The notes beneath the pieces were generated by a model. It was not told where the DNA came from. It ran no database searches and saw only the letters and a program-made list of their open reading frames with translations. Position numbers and translations under genes: made by a program. From an uncultured Candidatus Sumerlaeota bacterium (lineage in GTDB: Bacteria; Sumerlaeota; Sumerlaeia; MWCT01; JAUWMI01), in assembly GCA_964454265.1 (NCBI GenBank), contig CAYVXD010000013.1, positions 35,797 through 48,817 of the forward strand: a stretch of DNA of 13,021 nucleotides, in the 5' to 3' direction. This document shows, piece after piece, positions 2,964 to 12,869 of this stretch. The stretch's first letter is position 1, and every line of letters starts with the position of its first letter.

Positions 2964-3374
2964 ATGCATTGGGAGACATTCAATTTTAAGGCCAGCAGGA
3001 CCAGGCTAGGTCGAACAATAGGCCGTGTTCTAGAAGGCAGGAAGTTTACCTGTTCCTTATGTGCTGGTACAGGGATACTGCCCAGGAGCAAAGGCATAGA
3101 ATGTCCAGTATGTAAAGGTGCGGGCATAATCAATTTACAGGGACCTGTAGTTGTATGTGCTTATTGTAAAGGCAGAGGCGACTATCCGGCCAGAACAAAT
3201 ATTACCTGTACCGTCTGTGGAGGGAAAGGCCTGGTTAGTATTACCGAGCCTGTTGAAATATGTAAACATTGCAGGGGAACCGGCGCAGAGCCAGAGAATA
3301 AACTTCCTTGCCTGGAATGCAGAGGTAAAGGTGTTGTTCCTCGTTTTGTTCCGGCTGAGTCTCACTCCGAGTAA
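2964..3374 (+). CDS. Small DnaJ-CR-type zinc-finger protein, 6x CxxCxGxG (paralog 2)
   Basis: Motifs are CSLCAGTG, CPVCKGAG, CAYCKGRG, CTVCGGKG, CKHCRGTG and CLECRGKG, colinear with the 1072..1401 protein. The RBS is weak, and the start lies 18 nt after the upstream stop, so translational coupling is likely. Confidence 0.7.
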   Translation: MHWETFNFKASRTRLGRTIGRVLEGRKFTCSLCAGTGILPRSKGIECPVCKGAGIINLQGPVVVCAYCKGRGDYPARTNITCTVCGGKGLVSITEPVEICKHCRGTGAEPENKLPCLECRGKGVVPRFVPAESHSE

Positions 3375-3423: not shown

Positions 3424-3696
3424 ATGAAAGTAGAAGAAGTAAATAAGGCAATCGTAGAGTTTTTGAAATCTACTGTTAATGCAAATGCTCGAGATGCGAA
3501 AGTAATAAAGGTGGAGAGGTCGCAAGATGGGTGGATAGGTGAGGCTGAAGTTTTTGAGGAGAGTGCATTTATTAAATCTTTAGGTCTACCTACAAAGGTT
3601 CAGGATAGAAATATCTATGAGATTAAATTAACTGATACCCTGGAAGTAATTTCTTATTCACGAAAACATGCATCTTTAGGGGTTGAAAATGGCTGA
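3424..3696 (+). CDS. gvpO: GvpO-like gas vesicle protein
   Basis: RBS AGGAG lies upstream. The core VIKVERSQDGWIGEAEVFEE...YEIKLTDTLEVISYSRKH matches the conserved GvpO C-terminal pattern (V.rv...dG.W.v.vEvvE...IP...D....YEv.ld..g.l..y.R), as recalled from haloarchaeal and bacterial GvpO. The stop overlaps the start of the next gene. Confidence 0.6.
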   Translation: MKVEEVNKAIVEFLKSTVNANARDAKVIKVERSQDGWIGEAEVFEESAFIKSLGLPTKVQDRNIYEIKLTDTLEVISYSRKHASLGVENG

Positions 3697-4015
3697 TCAG
3701 ATAGTTCATGCAGTTCAAGCAACAAATCTGGCGGATATATTAGAAAGGGTCTTAGATAAAGGTATAGTTATCGCTGGAGATATTAAGATTCAACTTGCTG
3801 ACATTGATCTTCTCAACATCAAGATAAGGCTTTTGATTGCCTCCGTAGATAAAGCCATGGAAATGGGGATAAATTGGTGGCAACACGATTCTTATCTTTG
3901 CGCCAATTCGAAAGAGACGGAGCTAGAGCAAGAAAATCACTCTCTGAAGAAAGAGTTTAAATCGCTTAAGTCAAAAGTGGAGGACGTAATTTCAAAGTAT
4001 AAGAGACAAGAATGA
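3689..4015 (+). CDS. GvpA/J/M-family gas vesicle structural protein (GvpJ-like, with a charged coiled-coil C-terminal extension)
   Basis: NLADILERVLDKGIVIAGDIKIQLADIDLLNIKIRLLIASVDKAMEMG is the conserved GvpA-family core (LaevlDRiLDKGvVi.adi.vsl.dieLL.i..R.viASv). AGGGG lies 6 nt before ATG 3689; the track's start at 3683 is a non-ATG extension. The sequence 'GDIKIQLAD' resembles GvpJ/M more than the GvpA 'AWVRVSLVG'. Confidence 0.8.
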   Translation: MADQIVHAVQATNLADILERVLDKGIVIAGDIKIQLADIDLLNIKIRLLIASVDKAMEMGINWWQHDSYLCANSKETELEQENHSLKKEFKSLKSKVEDVISKYKRQE

Positions 4016-4069
4016 TTTGAAATTCTCTGAGAGGCAATATCTTCGCAGTAACTATTAGCTGGAGGGGAA

Positions 4070-4351
4070 ATGAGCTGGCGAGCGACGGAGTGCACCAATC
4101 AAAATGTAGCGCGAGTCCATGAAGTTTCTGCCAAGGATGTCTATACGTGTGGTATTTGCGGGGGCACAGGTCTTTTGTTTTCTAAAGTGGGCATAGAACA
4201 CCCTGTTTGTTCAGGCGAAGGGAAAGCAAATATCCCGCACTTGGCTGTAATTTGTGCCTACTGTGATGGAACAGGCAAGAGGAATGAAAGGAGTGGCCTC
4301 CCTTGCCTGTATTGTTTATTTTGGGATAGATGCCGGGGACGCGACTATTAG
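4070..4351 (+). CDS. Degenerate DnaJ-CR-type zinc-finger protein (paralog 3; motifs partly eroded)
   Basis: RBS GGAGGGG immediately precedes ATG 4070. Motifs are CGICGGTG, HPVCSGEG (the first Cys is replaced by His), CAYCDGTG and CLYC, followed by a non-canonical tail (LFWDRCRGRDY). This gives only about 3.5 motifs against 6 in the paralogs. Confidence 0.6.
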   Translation: MSWRATECTNQNVARVHEVSAKDVYTCGICGGTGLLFSKVGIEHPVCSGEGKANIPHLAVICAYCDGTGKRNERSGLPCLYCLFWDRCRGRDY

Positions 4352-4463: not shown

Positions 4464-5003
4464 ATGGGAAAAGAAAAAGAGAAAAAAGAAGATGAAGAAT
4501 TGGATATTGATTTTGGCATAGGTAGATTAGGCCTGAGGGGTTTATTTCAAGGCATAGAGAACTTGGTAGATCTTGCAGCGAAATTGAAAGAGGCAGGCGG
4601 CGAAATCAAGAAAGAAGGCGAAATTGACTTAAGCCATCTTAAAGAAGGTATGAAGGGAGTTTTTGGTTTCTCAATAAAGACAGCGGTGGGAGGGAAGCCA
4701 GTAGTCGAGTCGTTTGGTAACATCAAAAGGACTCCTAGGGGCCCTACTGTTGAAGAAGAAAGAGAACCTATTATAGACATCTTTGACGAAGAAGGAGAAG
4801 AGGTTCGACTGTACGCTGAAATGCCAGGCGTCAATGAAGAAGATATAAAGCTGGATTTAAAAGAGGATATTCTTGATATTTCAGCGCAGACCGGAGACAG
4901 AAAATACCACAAAGAAGTTTTACTCCCGGCAAAAGTTGAACCTGAGAGCCTTACGTCGAGTTATAGAAATGGTATTTTGGAAATAATAACGAAGAAATGT
5001 TAA
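4464..5003 (+). CDS. Hsp20/alpha-crystallin family small heat-shock protein (GvpH-like)
   Basis: The C-terminal alpha-crystallin domain reads EPIIDIFDEEGEEVRLYAEMPGVNEEDIKLDLKEDILDISAQ...YHKEVLLPAKVEPESLTSSYRNGILEI. The N-terminus is an acidic, K/E-rich region. Haloarchaeal GvpH is an Hsp20-like protein. Confidence 0.75.
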   Translation: MGKEKEKKEDEELDIDFGIGRLGLRGLFQGIENLVDLAAKLKEAGGEIKKEGEIDLSHLKEGMKGVFGFSIKTAVGGKPVVESFGNIKRTPRGPTVEEEREPIIDIFDEEGEEVRLYAEMPGVNEEDIKLDLKEDILDISAQTGDRKYHKEVLLPAKVEPESLTSSYRNGILEIITKKC

Positions 5004-5008
5004 ATTAA

Positions 5009-5944
5009 ATGGCATTGGCCGACATAAGAGAAGATGGGTTAAAATTAATTCTATTCGGAGGGAAAGGCGGTGTGGGAAAGACGACCTGTGCCTCAAGCAC
5101 AGGTCTTTATTTAGCTAAAGATTTTAAGACCCTGCTTGTTTCTACGGACCCAGCCCATTCGTTATCTGACAGTTTAGGGCAAAACATTGGTGACGAGATT
5201 AGCGAAATAAAAGGAATAAGAAACTTAAGCGCTGTTGAAGCAAGCGCGGAAAAGGCCCTTTCAAGATTCAAAATAGAATACGAAGATGAGATAAAAAAGA
5301 TTTTAGATACCTCTACTTATTTGGACCAGGAAGATATTGACTCTGTCTTTGACTTGCCTATTCCAGGTCTGGATGAGGTAATGGGATTCAAGACGATCAT
5401 TGATCTTATTGATGAGGCGGAGTTCGACAAATACATTGTTGATACGGCGCCTACCGGCCACGCGCTGAGACTTCTGGCCTTGCCGGATCTGCTTGATGAC
5501 TGGATCAAAGTGGTGGCGAAGATGAGATGGAAGTATCGGTATATGATCGACAGATTTGCCGGAAGGTACAACCCGGACGAAGGCGATGACTTTTTGCTGA
5601 CTATGAAGAAGACGGTAAAGAGGATAGAAGGCCTACTTCGCGATAAAAAAAGATGCGAATTCATAGCAGTTACAATCCCAGAAGAAATGGCCATTTTGGA
5701 GACTGACAGACTGATTAACAGTTTAGGCAGCTATGGGATGAAGGTGAAACGGCTCATTATTAATAATGTATTAGAATCAAGAGATTGTGCATTTTGCCGA
5801 GAAAGAAAAAAGGAACAAGAGAAATATATCGGCAAGATAAGAAGGAAATTCAGCAGCCTCCAGATAACAATTACTCCATTACAACCTAGAGAGGTTAGAG
5901 GGATACAAGACCTGGAGAATTTCAAAGAGCTGCTATTTGGGTAA
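5009..5944 (+). CDS. Get3/ArsA-family P-loop ATPase (anion-transporting ATPase-like)
   Basis: The deviant Walker A is [10 protein letters not shown]. The Get3/ArsA signature [12 protein letters not shown] is present. A CxxC pair (CAFCRERKK) sits near the C-terminus, resembling the Zn-binding dimerisation CxxC of Get3-type proteins. It starts 5 nt after the Hsp20 stop. Confidence 0.8.
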
Positions 5945-5946
5945 TT

Positions 5947-8088
5947 ATGACGAAGAAAGATGACAATGCAATGACATTGAAAGTGCAAGAAGCTTTGTCA
6001 AAGGATGTGGGCAGGGCAATTGCAAGGATAGACCCTGAAGATATGAAAAGTTTAGGGCTCGAAGTGGGAGAAATAATAGAGATTGGAGGTAAAAGAAAGA
6101 CGGCGGCGAAGGTAATGCCCTGTTATGCTGAAGATAGAGGGAAGAAGATTATTCAGATGGACGGGATCTCAAGAGAGAATGCCCAAATCGGTTTGGATGA
6201 AAAGGCAAAGATTCGTAAAGTTGGTCATAGACCCGCTAATAAAATCAAGCTCTCACCATTAACTGCATCACACCTGGTTCAAAGAGATAAGGATGCCAAA
6301 TATATCGGCTCTCTCATTGCAGGGATCCCTGTTTCCACCGGTGATAGGGTTAGAGCTACGCTTTTTGGATCAAGATCCTGCGATTTTAAGGTAGTAGGTA
6401 CTATCCCTGATGGGGTGGTATTGGTAAGTCCAACCACCATAGTGAGGATGGAGACAAAGAAATTAGGTGAAAGGGGTCCAGCCAAAGTTGCATATGAAGA
6501 TATTGGCGGACTCGGCACACAAATTCAAAGAATCAGAGAAATGATAGAACTTCCTCTACGATATCCTGAAGTTTTTGAGAGACTGGGAATCGATGCGCCG
6601 AAAGGTGTTTTTCTCTACGGACCACCGGGGACGGGAAAGACTTTAATTGCTCGAGCCGTGGCGAATGAAACGGACGCTTATTTTACTCATATATCAGGCC
6701 CTGAGATTATGGGCAAGTTCTACGGTGAAAGCGAGGCGCGTTTAAGAAGCGTATTTGAGGATGCCCAGAAACATGCGCCCGCTATAATCTTTATCGATGA
6801 GATAGATGCCATTGCCCCTAAAAGAGAAGAGATGGGCGGGGAGAAACAGGTTGAAAGACGTGTTGTGGCTCAGCTTTTAGCGCTGCTAGATGGATTAGAA
6901 TCTCGAGGGGAGGTAGTGATAATAGGAGCGACTAATATTCCTAATACTATAGACCCAGCCTTAAGAAGACCAGGACGGTTTGATAGAGAAATAGCCATCC
7001 CTATACCGGATAGGAATGGAAGATTAGAGATCTTACAGATTCATACCAGAGGCATGCCTCTTGCAGAAGACGTCAGCGTAGAAAAACTAGCTGAAATAAC
7101 TCATGGCTTTGTAGGAGCAGATTTAGAGGCCTTGGCAAGAGAAGCAGCTATGTCGGCTTTAAGGAAGATATTACCTAAAATAGATTTTGAATTGGCCGAT
7201 ATCCCATATGAGACTTTGATGAAGTTAGAAGTGACAATGGATAATTTTCTGGAGGCAATGAGGGAGGTCGAGCCATCGGCGATTAGAGAAGTGTTTGTAG
7301 AAGTCCCGGATGTGAAATGGAGTGATGTGGGCGGCCTCGATGATATCAAGGAAGAGCTAAGAGAGGCGATAGAATGGCCGCTTGAATATTCAGATGTTTT
7401 TAAGAAAGCAAGTACTCATCCTCCCAAAGGGATTTTGCTCTATGGATTACCTGGCACAGGGAAGACACTCCTGGCCAAGGCAGTGGCTAATGAAAGCGGG
7501 GTTAATTTTATATCCATTAAAGGTCCACAACTTATTAGCCGTTATGTTGGAGAATCAGAGCGAGGGGTGAGGGAGATATTCAAGAAGGCGAAGCAAGCTG
7601 CGCCAACAATACTTTTTCTGGATGAAATAGATAGCCTTGTTCCAATAAGAGGCTCAAGTTCTACAAGCGGTCATGTGACAGAGAGGGTAATAAGCCAATT
7701 TTTAACGGAAATGGATGGGATTGAGGAGCTTAAAGGGGTCGTTGTTTTAGCAGCTACTAACAGATTAGATTTAATTGACCCAGCATTACTAAGAAGTGGA
7801 AGATTGGACCTTTTGCTCGAGTTGCCTGCACCAGATGAAAAAGCCAGGGAGGAGGTATTCAAAATCCATACTCGCAATAAGCCGCTTGCCAAGGATGTTG
7901 ATTTGAAAAGCCTGGCCAAGGAGACTGAAGGTAAAGTAGGCTCTGACATTGAATTTATCTGCCGAAAGGCCTCTATGTTTGCGATAAGAGAATTTATAGA
8001 AAATCCAAAGGAGAAAAGCGGACCTATTATCAGAAGAACGCATTTTGAAGAGGCCATTAAGCTATTAGAAAAAAGAACACACGAATGA
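5947..8088 (+). CDS. Cdc48/VCP/p97-type AAA+ ATPase (N-domain plus tandem D1/D2 AAA modules)
   Basis: Two Walker A sites are present, [19 protein letters not shown] and [19 protein letters not shown]. The Walker B sites are [10 protein letters not shown] and [13 protein letters not shown]-like arginines occur ([22 protein letters not shown]; [19 protein letters not shown]). The N-terminal segment is a Cdc48_N-like double-psi barrel. The gene is 713 aa long and starts 2 nt after the Get3 stop. Confidence 0.85.
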
Positions 8089-8161
8089 AGATCCTCGGCC
8101 ACAAAATTAGAGGTAAAAGGGCTTTCGGCCTATCTTGATTGTCAGTAAGAAAGGAGGAGAG

Positions 8162-8188
8162 ATGCAATTTTTAGGATTTGTCCTATGA
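8162..8188 (+). other. Candidate 8-codon upstream ORF (MQFLGFVL*) behind a near-perfect SD in the 215-nt intergenic region
   Basis: AAGGAGGAGAG at 8151-8161 is immediately followed by ATG 8162, then CAA TTT TTA GGA TTT GTC CTA TGA. This is the strongest SD in the window, but it drives only a tiny ORF. Confidence 0.2.
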
Positions 8189-8251
8189 CTTGAGTAGGGC
8201 GCTGTATGCAATAAAGTTAAGAACTTCTTCTTTGCCTTTGTCCTGAAAGTG

Positions 8252-8286
8252 CCTTAGGGGAGGGCATGGTGTTGCCTCCCCTAAGG
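8252..8286 (+). promoter_or_regulatory. GC-rich stem-loop overlapping the ribosome-binding region of the GvpF/L-J gene
   Basis: CCTTAGGGGAGG(8252-8263) pairs with CCTCCCCTAAGG(8275-8286) as a perfect 12-bp inverted repeat; GCA/TGC pairs can extend it and the loop is about 6 nt. The 3' arm runs into AAGGTG, the SD for ATG 8304. No T-run follows, so it is not a classical intrinsic terminator. Confidence 0.4.
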
Positions 8287-8303
8287 TGAAAAGGTGTGCC
8301 ATA

Positions 8304-9434
8304 ATGGATAGAATAGGAAAATATATTTACGGAATTATAACTTCTAATGGAAAAGAGCTTTTTGGCTCTTGTATGCCAGCCGAAGCATCGGTGCAGGCAG
8401 GAGCGATTACAGCCTGTGAAGAAGCTCTCTCGATTAGAGGTGCCTCGGACGCTCCTGGAGAGTGCAAAACTCCTGGGGCCGTTTATACTATTCCATATCA
8501 GGATATCTCGGCTGTGGTTAGCGACTCAGAGATAGCTGATTATGGCCTTTTACTTAAGGATGAAGTAGCCAGGCGGTTAATTAAACATCAGCGGGTAATT
8601 GAAAAGGTTATGGAGAACTTTATGATTATTCCGATGCGGTTAGGAACTTTTGCTTACGATGCAGATGAGGTGGTCCGTATTTTGGCTCAAGGCTATATAA
8701 TAACTAAAGGCATATTTAATAAGGTATTTGATAAAATAGAGATTGATGTAGTTGCGGTGTGGAATGATTTCAATTCAGTCCTTCAAGAGGTAGTAGAAGA
8801 GAAAGAAATTAAGGAATTAAAAGGCAGACTCTTAGCTAATCCTAATGGGATAACGAAAGATGACCAGATGAAAGTGGGGATGATGGTTAAAAATCACCTG
8901 GATAAGAAAAGAGAAAAATGTGCTTTTGAGATACAAAGTGTTCTAAAGACTATTAGCCATGATTTTAGGGTACATGAGCTTATGAATGATAGAATGGTTA
9001 TTAATATGGCCTTTTTGATAAGTAAGGCCAAGGGTGAAGATTTCGATAGGAAAGTAGAAGAGCTAAATACTGCATTTGCTGATAAGTTAAATTTTAGATG
9101 TGTTGGGCCGCTTCCGCCTTATAGTTTTTACACGCTGGAGATAAAGAAGATGCAAATTGAAGAAATGGATTGGGCGAGAAAGAAACTCGGTTTAAATGAT
9201 GCTACAAGTAAAGCTGAAATTAAGAAAGCCTATCAGAGGCTAGCCTTTACTTCTCATCCTGATAAAAACTCACATATGCCAGGAACAGAAAGAGAATTTG
9301 ATGATGTTAATAAGGCTTACAGGATACTAATTGACTATTGTGAGGCTTGTGAACAGGTAAGCCAGCAAGATAGTTTTTCTCTTAGTGCGGAGGGATTCAA
9401 AAAGAACGCAATTTTGGTTACAGTGAGAGAATAG
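8304..9434 (+). CDS. GvpF/GvpL-family gas vesicle protein with a C-terminal DnaJ J-domain fusion
   Basis: SD AAGGTG lies 7 nt upstream of ATG 8304; the ORF-track GTG at 8286 is probably an over-extension. The N-terminus GKYIYGII is the GvpF/L-typical YxYG(I/V) start. The region HQRVIEKVMENFMIIPMRLGTFAYDADEV is paralogous to the 9436, 10773 and 12051 GvpF/L genes. The C-terminal ~60 aa reads DWARKKLGLNDATSKAEIKKAYQRLAFTSHPDKN...FDDVNKAYRIL, a J-domain with an intact HPD motif. Confidence 0.8.
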   Translation: MDRIGKYIYGIITSNGKELFGSCMPAEASVQAGAITACEEALSIRGASDAPGECKTPGAVYTIPYQDISAVVSDSEIADYGLLLKDEVARRLIKHQRVIEKVMENFMIIPMRLGTFAYDADEVVRILAQGYIITKGIFNKVFDKIEIDVVAVWNDFNSVLQEVVEEKEIKELKGRLLANPNGITKDDQMKVGMMVKNHLDKKREKCAFEIQSVLKTISHDFRVHELMNDRMVINMAFLISKAKGEDFDRKVEELNTAFADKLNFRCVGPLPPYSFYTLEIKKMQIEEMDWARKKLGLNDATSKAEIKKAYQRLAFTSHPDKNSHMPGTEREFDDVNKAYRILIDYCEACEQVSQQDSFSLSAEGFKKNAILVTVRE

Positions 9435-9435
9435 T

Positions 9436-10206
9436 ATGCACAAAGAAGGAAAGTATGTTTATTGTATTATTGGCACAAAGCAGGAAAGAAATTTTGGACC
9501 TATAGGCATAGGTAGAAGAGGTGATGAGGTCTTAACTATTGGCTATGATGACCTAAGCATGGTTGTAAGCAATCATCCTATGGCCAAACTTGTTGTTAAC
9601 TTGGAAAATATATTAGCCCATGAGAAGATAACTGAGGAGGTAATGAGAGAATTTGACAGTGTTCTTCCAGTTCGATTTGGAACTATTGCGTCCAGCGCGG
9701 ATGAGATAAGAAATCTTTTAGGTAGAAGGTTTAGAGAATTTAAGAATTCTCTTAGAGATATGGATCACAAAGTAGAATTAGGTGTTAAGGGTTTATGGAA
9801 AAATATGGATGAGATTTTTAAAGAGATCGTTGAAGTGAGCAAAGGAATTAAGACGGCGAAAGAAAAAATTCTGAACGATACCGGCAAGAAGAACACCGAG
9901 GCTAAAAGGGAAGTAGGCAAGATGGTTGAGCAGGCTTTGGCAAGGAAAAAGGAAAAGGAAGCCGAGAAAATAGTGCGTGCGCTACGAAGAACATCCTTTG
10001 ATTATAAGCTTAACAAAACAATTGATGATGAGATGTTCATGAATGCTGCCTTTTTGGTTGATAAAGGAAGAGAAAAAGAATTTGACAATATTATGGATGA
10101 TTTAAGTGAGCAATACAAGGAGAGAATATTGTTTATGTATGCAGGTCCTTTGCCTGTATTTAATTTTGTCAATATTACGATATATCCAGAGGAATGGGAA
10201 AAATAA
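9436..10206 (+). CDS. GvpF/GvpL-family gas vesicle protein (paralog 2)
   Basis: The N-terminus reads GKYVYCIIG...FGPIGIGRRGDEVLTIGYDDLSMVVSN. The region ILAHEKITEEVMREFDSVLPVRFGT and the C-terminal LFMYAGPLPVFNFV are colinear with the other paralogs. It starts 2 nt after the previous stop. Confidence 0.8.
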   Translation: MHKEGKYVYCIIGTKQERNFGPIGIGRRGDEVLTIGYDDLSMVVSNHPMAKLVVNLENILAHEKITEEVMREFDSVLPVRFGTIASSADEIRNLLGRRFREFKNSLRDMDHKVELGVKGLWKNMDEIFKEIVEVSKGIKTAKEKILNDTGKKNTEAKREVGKMVEQALARKKEKEAEKIVRALRRTSFDYKLNKTIDDEMFMNAAFLVDKGREKEFDNIMDDLSEQYKERILFMYAGPLPVFNFVNITIYPEEWEK

Positions 10207-10207
10207 A

Positions 10208-10558
10208 GTGGCCTTCAGTGGGACAGAAGCAGAAATCATAAATAGCGTTGCCCGATTAAGAAAAGCAACCAAGCACCAGATAAAAAGAGCGGTGGGTTTT
10301 TCATTAGAGTATGTAGGTTTCTTATGTCGGTATTTAGTTAGGAAAGGGTATTTAGTATTTCATAATAGGCATTATTCTTTGGCAAATGCAGGAATAGGAA
10401 CATTACTGACAGAAGAAGTGCCCAAGATTGATAGAAAGTTAATGAATGAGATAGCAAAAGAAGTAGCTGCGAAGATTGGCGGCGAGTTAAAAAGGACAAT
10501 AGAAGGCACACAGATTAATGGAATACGTTATAAAGAATATAAAGCAGCAGTTCAATAA
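10208..10558 (+). CDS. Hypothetical winged-helix-like protein (probable GTG start; possibly a remnant of a disrupted gene)
   Basis: The ORF-track start at 10106 would overlap the preceding gene by 100 nt in another frame. An in-frame GTG at 10208 directly follows the upstream stop at 10204-10206. The segment EAEIINSVARLRKATKHQIKRAVGFSLEYVGFLCRYLVRKGYLV looks like an HTH plus wing. The tail DRKLMNEIAKEVAAKIGGELKRTIEG loosely resembles the MreB/actin subdomain (DeaIinyIrr..g.lIGe.tAE.iK.eiG). Confidence 0.35.
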   Translation: MAFSGTEAEIINSVARLRKATKHQIKRAVGFSLEYVGFLCRYLVRKGYLVFHNRHYSLANAGIGTLLTEEVPKIDRKLMNEIAKEVAAKIGGELKRTIEGTQINGIRYKEYKAAVQ

Positions 10559-10772
10559 GGCAAGGGGAATGCCGCGGATACAGAAGCCAATTAAGATAGT
10601 GCTATCCGGAGGGACATCTTTGCCAAAAGGTTTTGCCCAGAGATTTAAAAAGATCTTGGATCGGTTGAGTCTGCCTGTTCCAGTTGGAGAAGTGAGGATG
10701 GCGTCTCAGCCTCTGAAAAGTGTAGCGAAAGGAGCATTAGTGGCAGCTAGTGCTGATGGAGGCAAGAAATAG
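10518..10772 (+). pseudogene. 84-aa ORF carrying only the C-terminal 'adenosine' motif region of an actin/Hsp70-fold ATPase (MreB/ParM/Hsp70 NBD-like), a likely gene fragment
   Basis: KIVLSGGTSLPKGFAQRFKKILDRLSLPVPVGEVRMASQPLKSVAKGALVAA matches the MreB/actin C-terminus (VLTGGGALLRNLD..L.....IPV.VAEDPL.CVA.GaG). The N-terminal ~250 aa of the fold are absent. The ORF overlaps the upstream ORF by 41 nt in a different frame, and a frame-0 TAG at 10500-10502 blocks any upstream extension. Confidence 0.4.
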
Positions 10773-11540
10773 ATGGAAGTGGCCTTAAAAGAAGGTAAGT
10801 ATATATACTGCATAATAGAGTCAAATCAATCTCAATCATTTGGCCCATTGGGCATTGGCGGAAGAGGTGATCAATTATATACTATCTGCTTTAATGGTAT
10901 TGCCGCAGTGGTGAGCAATGCTCCGATTAAAAAATATCCCATCTCAAGAGAAAATACCCTTGGCCATGAGAAGGCAATTGAGGAGGTAATGAAAGAACAT
11001 ACAGTTTTACCAGTTAGATTTGCTACAATTGCCGAAGACGAAGGGAAGGTTAAGAAGATATTAGAAAAAGAGCACGACAGATTTAAAGGTCTGTTAGATA
11101 AGATGAGAGACAAGAAAGAGCTGGGGCTTAAAGCAATATTTAGAGAAGATGTTGTTTATAAGGATATTTTGGAAAGATACGAAGATATAAGGGTGTTAAA
11201 GGAAAAAACAGCCGGATTGCCTTCTGATAAGACGTATTATCAACGTATGGAAATAGGAAGAATGGTGGAGGCTGCTCTGCAAAAAGAGAAAGAGATTTAT
11301 AAAGGGGATATATTAAATACTTTATCGCCGTTGGCAGTGGAAGTTAAGACCACCGATACCTATTACGAGCTGATGATTATAAATGCCGCCTTCTTGGTGG
11401 AAGAACACAGAGAGGCAGAGTTTGATCAAGATGTGGAGGGACTTGCGGACAAGTATGTCGAAAAGGTTAGATTCAAGTATGTAGGCACGCTGCCAGCATT
11501 TAATTTTGTTAATCTGCTTATCAGGACAGAGGAATATTAA
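10773..11540 (+). CDS. GvpF/GvpL-family gas vesicle protein (paralog 3)
   Basis: The N-terminus reads GKYIYCIIE...FGPLGIGGRGDQLYTICFNGIAAVVSN. Further matching segments are LGHEKAIEEVMKEHTVLPVRFAT and KYVGTLPAFNFV. ATG 10773 abuts the upstream stop at 10770-10772. Confidence 0.8.
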   Translation: MEVALKEGKYIYCIIESNQSQSFGPLGIGGRGDQLYTICFNGIAAVVSNAPIKKYPISRENTLGHEKAIEEVMKEHTVLPVRFATIAEDEGKVKKILEKEHDRFKGLLDKMRDKKELGLKAIFREDVVYKDILERYEDIRVLKEKTAGLPSDKTYYQRMEIGRMVEAALQKEKEIYKGDILNTLSPLAVEVKTTDTYYELMIINAAFLVEEHREAEFDQDVEGLADKYVEKVRFKYVGTLPAFNFVNLLIRTEEY

Positions 11541-11780: not shown

Positions 11781-12040
11781 CTGGTTAATATAGAAGAAGC
11801 CGGAAAAGCAACAGGTGCGGAGTTTTTGAAAAGACCTTTGGGGTAAAAGAGATAAAGGTCATTAAGGCAATACAGATTGGCAATGGCTGGGAGAATGAAG
11901 CAGAAGTATATGAAGAGAGCTATTAAAAGGCCCCTGAATTGTCAACTGGAGTGCAGGGCGGGAATACCTATTAGGTGAAACTAAACGATGGATTAGAAGT
12001 TGAAACCTATGGGTTTGATGGGATTCAGCAAGATTTCTAA
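11781..12040 (+). pseudogene. Frameshifted and stop-interrupted remnant of a second GvpO-like gene (paralog of 3424..3696)
   Basis: Frame 0 (11781-11846) reads LVNIEEAGKATGAEFLKRPLG*, corresponding to VEEVNKAIVEFLKSTVNA of the 3424 gene. After a -1 shift near 11843 it reads VKEIKVIKAIQIGNGWENEAEVYEESY* (cf. DAKVIKVERSQDGWIGEAEVFEESAF), then KAPELSTGVQGGNTY*VKLNDGLEVETYGFDGIQQDF* (cf. LGLPTKVQDRNIYEIKLTDTLEVISYSRKH). There is one frameshift and two in-frame stops (TAA 11924, TAG 11972). Confidence 0.55.
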
Positions 12041-12050
12041 TGGGGTGAAT

Positions 12051-12869
12051 ATGGAAGTAGCAAAGAAAGACCTCATCTATTTGTATTGTGTCACAAATAA
12101 GGTACCCAAGTTGAAAGAGGTAGAAGATTTGGTCGATGAACTTAGTTTTGTTCATCACTGCGGTCTTTATGCTGTGGTTAGCAAAGTCTTAGGATGTGAG
12201 TTTAGCGAGGAAAATCTAAAGAAGAATTTATGTGATATAGAGTGGGTAAAGCTTAAAGCAAGTATACACGAGAAGATAATAGAAGGGGTTATGAGAAATA
12301 GCTGTGTAGTTCCTTTTAAGTTCGCAACTTTATTCAATACCAAGGATAACTTGAAAGCGTGCATGAAGGAACATGAGGAAGAACTGAAAGAGAATTTAAA
12401 CAACTTAGAGGGCAAGGAGGAGTGGGGGGTAAAGATTTACTGTGACGCGGAAAAGTTAGAAGAAAGCCTCGTACAGGAAGATGAAGAGATCTTAAAGATC
12501 CATAAGGAAATTAGTTCTTCTACGCCTGGGAAGGCCTTTTTCTTGAAGAAGAAAGAGGAAGAGTTACTGAATATAGCAGTAAATAAGAGGATCAATGAAT
12601 ATGGTCAAGATAGTTTTGCTAGGCTTCGAGAACAGAGTCTTCAAACGCGTTTCAATAAATTATTGCCAAAAGAAGTGACTGAAAGAAAGGATGATATGGT
12701 TCTGAATTCTGCCTTTTTAGTTGAGAAGGAGAAGGTGAGTGCATTTATGAGCACGGTAGGTGTTCTGAAAGCACAACATGAGTTCAGCGGGCTATTCTTT
12801 GATTGCACCGGTCCTTGGCCACCTTACAATTTCTGTGATTTTTCAAGAGAAAAAGCACAAAATGGATAA
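12051..12869 (+). CDS. GvpF/GvpL-family gas vesicle protein (paralog 4)
   Basis: GGGGTGA lies 3 nt before ATG 12051; the track's 12000 start would run through the pseudogene remnant. The N-terminus reads KKDLIYLYCVT. Further matches are IHEKIIEGVMRNSCVVPFKFATLF and the C-terminal FDCTGPWPPYNF (cf. CVGPLPPYSF, YAGPLPVFNF). Confidence 0.75.
   Translation: MEVAKKDLIYLYCVTNKVPKLKEVEDLVDELSFVHHCGLYAVVSKVLGCEFSEENLKKNLCDIEWVKLKASIHEKIIEGVMRNSCVVPFKFATLFNTKDNLKACMKEHEEELKENLNNLEGKEEWGVKIYCDAEKLEESLVQEDEEILKIHKEISSSTPGKAFFLKKKEEELLNIAVNKRINEYGQDSFARLREQSLQTRFNKLLPKEVTERKDDMVLNSAFLVEKEKVSAFMSTVGVLKAQHEFSGLFFDCTGPWPPYNFCDFSREKAQNG

Follow-up and report, generated by a model that had tools for sequence, protein, structure and literature searches.

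Why would a gas-vesicle assembly factor carry a J-domain, and what would it do with it? The question is raised by a stretch of 13,021 nucleotides from an uncultured Candidatus Sumerlaeota bacterium (contig CAYVXD010000013.1; the window, from here on), which is as a whole a gas-vesicle cluster on one strand and in which one gene joins a GvpF/L protein to a C-terminal J-domain. It touches a point that is unresolved in the field, namely how the amyloid-like, extremely hydrophobic shell protein GvpA stays soluble and enters the growing wall. The role of the essential GvpF/L proteins in this process is still a hypothesis, with these proteins being regarded as "chaperone-like" (PMC11445434) or as a complex attracting GvpA (PMC7688916). 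Both domains of the fusion protein are real, an artefact being excluded, and Hsp70 recruitment is its best-supported mechanism, by inference. We give a probability of roughly 0.62 to the reading that the product is a class-C (type III) J-protein, in which a complete GvpF/L fold would serve as substrate or targeting module and the host DnaK would be recruited. It is placed in class C because its J-domain is C-terminal and no DnaJ_C, Gly/Phe-rich (G/F) or PF00684 match was obtained in the protein.

The gene and the parts of its product, numbered in amino acids (aa), are the following:

8290 to 8296, + strand: Shine-Dalgarno-like AAAGGTG, 7 nt before ATG 8304, read from the sequence
8304 to 9434, + strand: GvpF/L-J fusion gene, 376 aa plus stop; a single open reading frame (ORF) with Pfam GvpL_GvpF and DnaJ matches and an AlphaFold2 (AF2) model
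8316 to 9131, + strand: GvpL_GvpF domain, aa 5-276; PF06386 (E 4.6e-52), phmmer against PDB, Foldseek
8364 to 8477, + strand: lineage-specific, predicted disordered loop insertion with cysteine, aa ~21-58; alignment and predicted local distance difference test (pLDDT)
9156 to 9341, + strand: J-domain, aa 285-346; PF00226, PDB J-domain matches, superposition on 5nro_B, ratio of non-synonymous to synonymous substitution rates (dN/dS) of 0.21
9255 to 9263, + strand: HPD tripeptide, H318 P319 D320, invariant in close relatives
9342 to 9431, + strand: conserved C-terminal tail, aa 347-376 (...FKKNAILVTVRE), predicted strand-helix-strand

The N-terminal part belongs to the GvpF/L family by sequence and by predicted fold. 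Its PF06386 match reaches 177.9 bits against a cutoff of 23.6 and covers profile positions 1-244 of 245, and the sole PDB sequences matched by phmmer are GvpF crystals (6l5d, 1.6e-12; 4qsg, 5e-10). An AF2 model built on a 124-sequence alignment (mean pLDDT 87.7; predicted template-modelling score, pTM, 0.80) presents the GvpF-type two-subdomain alpha/beta fold, which Foldseek places on 6l5d_B with an E of 2e-14 and a TM-score (target) of 0.80, and on 4qsg with a TM-score of 0.76. The window encodes three further GvpF/L paralogs, named here FL2, FL3 and FL4, and Pfam GvpL_GvpF matches in all four proteins agree with the family assignment made in the preliminary description. The fusion protein is 31, 32 and 24% identical to FL2, FL3 and FL4, respectively, and FL3 is the most GvpF-like of the four, with 1e-22 against PDB 6l5d compared to 1.6e-12 for the fusion protein. 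Scored against the NCBI equivalog models, the fusion protein stays below the cutoffs of both GvpF (NF052351, 77.9 versus 350) and GvpL (NF045778, 40 versus 200), and from these comparisons it can be regarded as a distinct GvpF/L paralog group, closer to neither GvpF nor GvpL.

Regarding the C-terminal part, aa 295-344 match the Pfam DnaJ profile PF00226 (E 7.4e-14; 52.0 bits versus a gathering cutoff of 27.8) over profile positions 6-55 of 63. When the last 107 aa were compared with PDB, J-domains alone were matched, 36 of them at E <=1e-3, including E. coli DnaJ and human HDJ1; matches in the range of 1.3e-8 to 1e-5 have E. coli DnaJ among them. In the AF2 model, helix I covers aa 285-294 and helix II aa 303-317, followed by the HPD loop and by helix III at aa 328-352, and this part superposes on the DnaK-bound J-domain of DnaJ (5nro_B) with 1.2 Å over 54 columns. 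An ungapped alignment to residues 10-59 of E. coli DnaJ puts H318-P319-D320 in register with H33-P34-D35. Residues K307, K308, A309, F332, A338, Y339 and L342 are conserved and correspond to DnaJ R22, K23, A24, F47, A53, Y54 and L57; the equivalents of DnaJ Y25, R27 and D59 are also kept, and R312 is present. The preliminary description had proposed a J-domain with an intact HPD in the last ~70 aa: the domain, its C-terminal location and the HPD are confirmed, whereas its extent has to be corrected to about aa 285-346, followed by a conserved tail of 30 aa. Within this tail, N368, V372 and L371 are conserved at 94, 93 and 88%, respectively, and two strands are predicted at aa 357-359 and 370-375 with pLDDT values of 79-93. 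The J-domain is joined to the GvpF/L part rigidly, without a flexible linker, because FL2 and FL3 end (...EEWEK and ...EEY) exactly where helix I of the J-domain begins (...IEEMDWARKK), in agreement with the high pTM.

The preliminary description had also raised the possibility that two separate genes, for a GvpF/L and for a J-protein, are merged by a frameshift or a misassembly. Apart from this a-priori possibility nothing speaks for such an artefact, and its probability is close to nil, given what was found among the relatives. In a search of 5.8 billion proteins, the 120 best matches used here (53-97% identity, 294-395 aa) all possess both PF06386 and PF00226. A second search, with aa 270-376 alone against 1.84 billion representatives of 50%-identity clusters, gave 2356 matches at E <=1e-3, and at least 130 of the best 150 representatives carry a GvpF/L domain upstream of the J module, 99 of those being full length; the survey of databases thus finds the fusion to be common. 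Scans of genome and metagenome contigs gave 14 and 80 loci, respectively, with at least 446 relatives among the 599 candidates listed from the metagenomes. These scans used peptide patterns inside the GvpF/L part, so that orthologues lacking the J-domain would have surfaced. In each of the 100 loci analysed, which come from many independent samples and assemblers, the J module continues the GvpF/L reading frame, and the linker-less junction is modelled confidently and continuously. Carriers, known from metagenome-assembled genomes (MAGs) or single-cell genomes, are found in Omnitrophota, Pirellulales/Planctomycetia (Planctomycetota), Nitrospirota, Elusimicrobiota, Ignavibacteriales, Cloacimonetes and Syntrophales, as well as in Ca. 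Schekmanbacteria and Ca. Desantisbacteria. Their database labels are automated only ("GvpL/GvpF family gas vesicle protein", "J domain-containing protein" or "DnaJ-domain-containing protein 1").

The fusion is also kept by selection. All 121 close members and all 86 locus-derived proteins have the HPD, as do 125 of 130 distant cluster representatives. By the Nei-Gojobori method, pooled over 174 moderately diverged pairs, dN/dS is 0.21 in the J-domain, compared to 0.25 in the GvpF/L domain and 0.27 in the tail. Owing to partial saturation of dS and to dependence among the pairs, these figures are upper-bound-like. They indicate that the J module is under purifying selection and at least as constrained as the GvpF/L domain. 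An exact-sequence look-up of the fusion protein gave no record. The nearest relative, L024 (Logan SRR31155648), is a 1.6-kb contig from an independent run with 98.75% DNA identity to positions 7974-9577 of the window. Between the two there are 13 coding differences in the fusion gene, 11 non-synonymous and 2 synonymous, five of them in the N-terminal strand/loop region. As a separate observation, one relative of 132 aa (P0150) has the first GvpF/L strand (GKYIYGII) joined almost directly to the J-domain; together with the members lacking the HPD, it could be a natural experiment in J-domain minimisation or decay.

J-domains bearing an HPD bind Hsp70 in its ATP state and trigger hydrolysis, upon which the Hsp70 closes on a client nearby, and class-C J-proteins give this activity a specific address. 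Following this scheme, the GvpF/L part would bind a hydrophobic GvpA-family shell protein or the nucleation complex of accessory proteins, while the J-domain would dock an ATP-bound DnaK-type Hsp70 encoded elsewhere in the genome. The HPD loop would then trigger ATP hydrolysis and the Hsp70 would clamp onto the adjacent client, so that the aggregation-prone shell protein stays soluble and assembly-competent. A small heat-shock protein holdase, a Get3-like ATPase, DnaJ-type zinc-finger proteins and a Cdc48-like unfoldase, all co-encoded, might act alongside. In Halobacterium, GvpA interacts directly with GvpF alone, and GvpL interacts with every accessory Gvp (PMC7688916). The GvpF of B. megaterium is the primary, transient partner of GvpA2 and was proposed to be a chaperone; its contact with GvpA is displaced by GvpG (PMC11445434). 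Work cited in the same paper indicates that GvpF attaches to the shell protein at its hydrophobic portion, which faces the gas. In addition, expression of gas vesicles is proteotoxic in E. coli (PMC12848028). Presentation of GvpA-family clients to the host Hsp70, as proposed in the preliminary description, would fit the published binding between GvpF and GvpA.

The surroundings of the fusion gene are summarized below, in the order of the window:

308 to 910: coiled-coil protein
1009 to 1401, + strand: ZnF1, stand-alone DnaJ-type zinc-finger protein with six CXXCXGXG motifs (PF00684, E 2e-11)
1473 to 2387: GvpN (TIGR02640)
2418 to 2579: 53-aa AbrB/MazE-like ORF after GvpN, kept in relatives, the window copy being without a Pfam match
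between this ORF and ZnF2: second coiled-coil protein
2964 to 3374, + strand: ZnF2, stand-alone DnaJ-type zinc-finger protein with six CXXCXGXG motifs (PF00684, E 4.6e-14)
3424 to 3696: GvpO-like gene, intact
3683 to 4015: GvpA/J-family gene
4070 to 4351: degenerate third zinc-finger ORF, with 2 of 6 CXXCXGXG motifs
4464 to 5003, + strand: Hsp20 (Pfam HSP20; NCBIfam NF041800, "archaeal Hsp20" equivalog, 147 bits versus cutoff 140)
5009 to 5944, + strand: Get3/ArsA-family (Get3/TRC40) ATPase, single-domain, 311 aa (Pfam ArsA_ATPase; TIGR00345, 272 versus 135)
5947 to 8088, + strand: Cdc48-family double-ring AAA+ ATPase (TIGR01243, 959 bits versus cutoff 803; CDC48_N and two AAA domains)
9436 to 10206, + strand: FL2 (PF06386, E 6e-58), starting 2 nt after the stop of the fusion gene
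10773 to 11540: FL3 (PF06386, E 2e-66)
12000 or 12051 to 12869: FL4 (PF06386, E 3e-55)

Membership of a gas-vesicle cluster is evident from GvpN, GvpG, the GvpA/J-family gene, GvpO and the three paralogs in the window, and the syntenic loci of relatives also encode GvpA and GvpK. After Cdc48, the window has the fusion gene, FL2, a remnant region, FL3, GvpG and FL4. Among the loci that extend upstream of the fusion gene, the gene directly before it is the Cdc48-like one in 73/75; FL2 comes directly after it in 74/76, and Hsp20 and Get3/ArsA are kept upstream of Cdc48 in most related loci. The order Hsp20, ArsA, Cdc48, fusion gene, FL2, FL3, GvpG, GvpO-like, FL4 recurs across phyla, and the fusion group holds a fixed slot in the gas-vesicle clusters of many uncultured bacterial phyla. 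ZnF1 and ZnF2 are proteins of 130-136 aa with no J-domain, and their homologues occur in 32/100 and 30/100 loci, respectively; in this cluster, the J-domain and zinc-finger modules of DnaJ are found on separate polypeptides. An orthologue of the 53-aa ORF, in locus L001, is annotated as PF04014, MazE/AbrB-type (SpoVT-AbrB fold), and the ORF may encode a small DNA-binding regulator or an antitoxin-like protein. The block at 3424-4351, between ZnF2 and Hsp20, has no counterpart at that position in any related locus. In relatives, homologues of its GvpJ-like gene (65-75% identity) stand far away, at the other end of the cluster, suggesting that this lineage has undergone a duplication or a rearrangement.

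The statement of the preliminary description that no Hsp70 is encoded nearby holds well beyond the window. With E. coli DnaK as tblastn probe, no match was obtained in the window, nor in 99 of 100 related loci (1.01 Mb in total, with 30 loci having at least 5 kb on both sides). As the probe matches a single locus, the partner Hsp70 is generally encoded elsewhere, and an in-cluster Hsp70 as a general feature was rejected. The sole match, in a Syntrophales MAG (L016, positions 10059-13270), lies at the end of a gas-vesicle cluster whose GvpF/L-J gene is more divergent. Genes for a histidine kinase, a response regulator and the DnaK-type Hsp70 come after this cluster, all on its strand. This Hsp70 (PF00012, E 3e-201; PRK00290, 748 bits versus cutoff 648) shares only 44% identity with E. 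coli DnaK, and its gene contains an in-frame stop close to the 3' end; it may belong to the cluster or be a housekeeping gene standing there by coincidence.

An actin-fold gene present in some of these clusters was also considered as an Hsp70 surrogate and rejected, being Volactin/MamK-like rather than Hsp70-like and found in only 15/61 loci. In the window it is reduced to a decay remnant between FL2 and FL3 (10208-10772), composed of a truncated copy (~116 codons from GTG 10208) of a 172-178 aa unknown protein and of the last 84 codons of the Volactin-like gene (PF25216), which is 348 aa long when complete (L021, E 2e-95). Comparison with L021 (11812-13373) and L023 (12096-13629) shows a loss of about 1 kb, the ends of which meet near 10517/10518. 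Among the loci, this site has no insert in 44 and the full two-gene module in 15, with remnants in L026, L032 and the window. It appears that no actin-like filament protein has been described from gas-vesicle clusters. In addition, nearly all related loci have a GvpO-like gene of ~87 aa after GvpG, and its copy in the window (11846-12013) is a pseudogene with two in-frame stops. It is overlapped by the listed FL4 start, TTG 12000, and ATG 12051 (MEVAKKDLIYLYC) is the more likely start of FL4.

Several points weigh against delivery of GvpA to the host DnaK. The client is uncertain, as the fusion paralog is not the most GvpF-like one and falls below the cutoffs of both equivalogs, and the partner is assumed, with no DnaK match in the window and no Hsp70 gene in 99% of the loci. 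Within the J-domain, the basic face of helix II is partly kept (DnaJ R19 and K26 are A304 and Q311), the helix III of DnaJ is less acidic (its K48 is D333 here), and the canonical helix IV is absent from both the Pfam match and the AF2 model, helix III running into the family-specific tail. Helix IV is not needed for Hsp70 stimulation. Five divergent members (P0221, P0231, P0241, P0252 and P0263) lack the HPD, having for example CRPD, LQPD or HTD instead. Finally, the comparison with L024 fits neutrality and, with 13 differences only, rejects an omega <=0.25 at P=0.01, and constraint on the fusion gene may be relaxed in this lineage, where several neighbouring genes have decayed. It is known that dN/dS between near-identical strains is inflated.

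The last of these points could be taken further, to the reading that the fusion gene is no longer functional here, whatever the family does elsewhere. Such a relic in a decaying cluster would agree with the actin-like gene being down to 84 C-terminal codons, with the stops in the second GvpO-like gene, with the degenerate zinc-finger copy, with a start-less micro-ORF after Cdc48 and with the 11 non-synonymous against 2 synonymous differences from L024. It is nevertheless improbable, since the 376 codons of the ORF are uninterrupted and encode all residues conserved in the family, the HPD among them; the core genes (GvpN, Hsp20, ArsA, Cdc48, FL2-4 and GvpG) are all intact; the lost genes are optional in relatives or, as for GvpO (3424-3696), have an intact second copy; and a ratio drawn from so few differences between close strains is expected to be inflated. 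A function without Hsp70 is highly improbable. Here the J fold would be a structural cap, or a dock for an ATPase of the cluster (Cdc48-like AAA+ or Get3/ArsA) or for the actin-fold protein, in line with the adjacency of Cdc48 (73/75 loci), the lack of an Hsp70 in 99/100 loci, the partly diverged helix II/III surface and lost helix IV, and a high pTM with a tail folding back in the AF2 model, which suggests an integrated rather than a free J-domain. The adjacency of FL2 is just as strict (74/76), so that the position of Cdc48 reflects operon order and not a specific pairing, and the actin-fold gene is restricted to 15/61 loci. Moreover, an invariant HPD with a conserved helix II/III core is the signature of Hsp70 coupling, and to our knowledge no non-Hsp70 partner of an HPD J-domain has been established.

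Two other possibilities retain Hsp70 recruitment and modify its purpose. An auxilin-like role, in which the GvpF/L module is located on the shell as it forms, or in the accessory-protein complex, and Hsp70 would strip or recycle assembly factors of the growing lattice, the fusion protein among them, or dismantle mis-assembled GvpA, is unlikely on the whole. The rigid attachment of a C-terminal J-domain to a module for lattice or complex binding does recall the architecture of auxilin, and a Cdc48-like unfoldase is adjacent. The transient contact of GvpF with GvpA, displaced by GvpG (PMC11445434), and the scaffold function of GvpL, which binds all accessory Gvps (PMC7688916), are also in its favour, the fusion protein being closer to neither. 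This role needs the same Hsp70 recruitment as client delivery. Client delivery itself may, as a tentative extension, be part of a cluster-encoded, client-dedicated proteostasis relay, similar to the disaggregation triad of sHsp, DnaK-DnaJ and ClpB: Hsp20 and the Get3-like ATPase would hold GvpA, the fusion protein would act as adaptor and load the host Hsp70, the zinc-finger proteins would supply the DnaJ module in trans, and the Cdc48-like AAA+, together with Hsp70, would extract subunits or thread them into the shell. If true, this would be the first bacterial organelle built by an Hsp70 and Cdc48 pair via a structural-protein-specific J-adaptor.

A special role of the Cys-containing insertion near the N-terminus, which the preliminary description had noted as lacking in the other paralogs, did not find support. 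The family alignment identifies it as a variable-length hairpin loop between strands 1 and 2 of the GvpF/L fold, and the version of the window is common to its closest relatives only (P0001, and in part P0002 and P0004). It was rejected as a metal or redox site, as it is not conserved, is predicted to be disordered (pLDDT <50 for aa 25-55) and its cysteines vary, with C54 replaced by serine in L024.

Concerning the reading frame, the ORF is uninterrupted from ATG 8304 to TAG 9432-9434 on the + strand. The limits of 8304-9434 assigned beforehand are right, and the N-terminus from ATG 8304, MDRIGKYIYGII, agrees with those of relatives in the alignment. An in-frame GTG at 8286 is the less likely start candidate, since family members begin with M-x-x-x-G-K-Y-I-Y-G. 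The spacer between Cdc48 and the fusion gene holds a start-less remnant at 8198-8257 (...GAVCNKVKNFFFAFVLKVP, then a stop), derived from a micro-ORF of 37-52 aa (MVKIIEKIKNFF..., with a lysine/glutamate-rich tail) that is kept in relatives L001, L021, L023 and L025. A perfect GC-rich hairpin of 12-13 bp (8252-8286; free energy, dG, -32.5 kcal/mol, z -3.6) stands directly before the ribosome-binding site of the fusion gene. It was rejected as a repeated element or conserved regulator, being single-copy in the window and missing at that place in relatives, and it is not among the two terminator-like sites of a consensus scan of 7900-9700.

Selection has kept the fusion in hundreds of lineages, and in the manner of a Rosetta stone this is evidence for an interface between GvpF/L and Hsp70. 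The idea that GvpF/L are chaperones thereby becomes a link to Hsp70 that is concrete and can be tested, and a chaperone-rich type of gas-vesicle cluster, widespread in uncultured anaerobes, comes to light. Proteotoxic stress sets limits to the heterologous expression of gas vesicles for acoustic reporter genes (PMC12848028), and a J-tagged GvpF/L or the Hsp20/Get3/Cdc48 module offers an engineering route. These prospects have to be read with the carriers being uncultured, the proteins already automatically annotated and the mechanism inferred. In the full-text literature, outside of which most subscription journals lie, we found neither a GvpF/L-J fusion nor a part played by DnaK in building gas vesicles, and no paper on a Cdc48-like ATPase in these clusters; DnaJ and DnaK are mentioned for stress responses or methods only, and for Cdc48 and Hsp20 a single paper of 2010 on ArsA was retrieved. 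Provisionally, the fusion is therefore undescribed, though visible to automated annotation.

Compared to the known systems, the closest relatives are GvpF and GvpL (4QSG from Microcystis, 6L5D from Anabaena), which share fold and family over aa 5-284 and are likewise encoded in gas-vesicle clusters with paralogs, GvpG, GvpN and GvpJ/K-type genes. The characterised GvpF/L proteins lack the C-terminal J-domain and tail, both of which the fusion protein has. As for the cluster, Castillo and Saier (2010, PMC2963123) have described gas-vesicle clusters that hold genes for an ArsA-family ATPase and Hsp20 along with gvpN/F/L/G/J/K and several GvpF/L paralogs. That paper makes no mention of DnaJ, and its gene sets are without the Cdc48-like ATPase and zinc-finger proteins present here; its ArsA homologues are mostly two-domain (~640 aa), in contrast to the single-domain ArsA of the window (311 aa). 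With class A DnaJ, the fusion protein shares a J-domain that aligns without gaps and has the HPD in register, and a zinc-finger module is also found in its cluster, with six CXXCXGXG motifs in each of ZnF1 and ZnF2 compared to four in DnaJ. Class A and B DnaJ differ by carrying the J-domain at the N-terminus, and the fusion protein has neither a G/F region, PF00684 nor the DnaJ C-terminal domain; its DnaJ equivalog scores are <=41 against cutoffs >338.

In its likely function, the fusion protein is closest to J-proteins dedicated to one client, namely HscB/Jac1, auxilin and, for a bacterial organelle, TopJ. HscB/Jac1 is a client-specific J-protein that hands the IscU scaffold to HscA/Ssq1. Like the fusion protein, it has a J-domain rigidly joined to a dedicated client-binding domain, serves a single assembly pathway and lacks a G/F or zinc-finger region. 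However, the J-domain of HscB is N-terminal, its client domain is unrelated, and it has a dedicated Hsp70 (HscA) in its operon, unlike 99/100 of the fusion loci. Auxilin/GAK, the eukaryotic co-chaperone of clathrin uncoating, disassembles a lattice. It shares with the fusion protein a C-terminal J-domain on a module that binds a self-assembling shell and a general Hsp70 that is not co-encoded, but it is eukaryotic and has an unrelated binding domain, and the shells of gas vesicles are built and very stable. The NCBIfam models of DjlA, CbpA and TopJ match the fusion protein over the J-domain only, with scores far below the family cutoffs. TopJ, which acts in terminal-organelle assembly in Mycoplasma, is the precedent of a J-protein devoted to a bacterial organelle.

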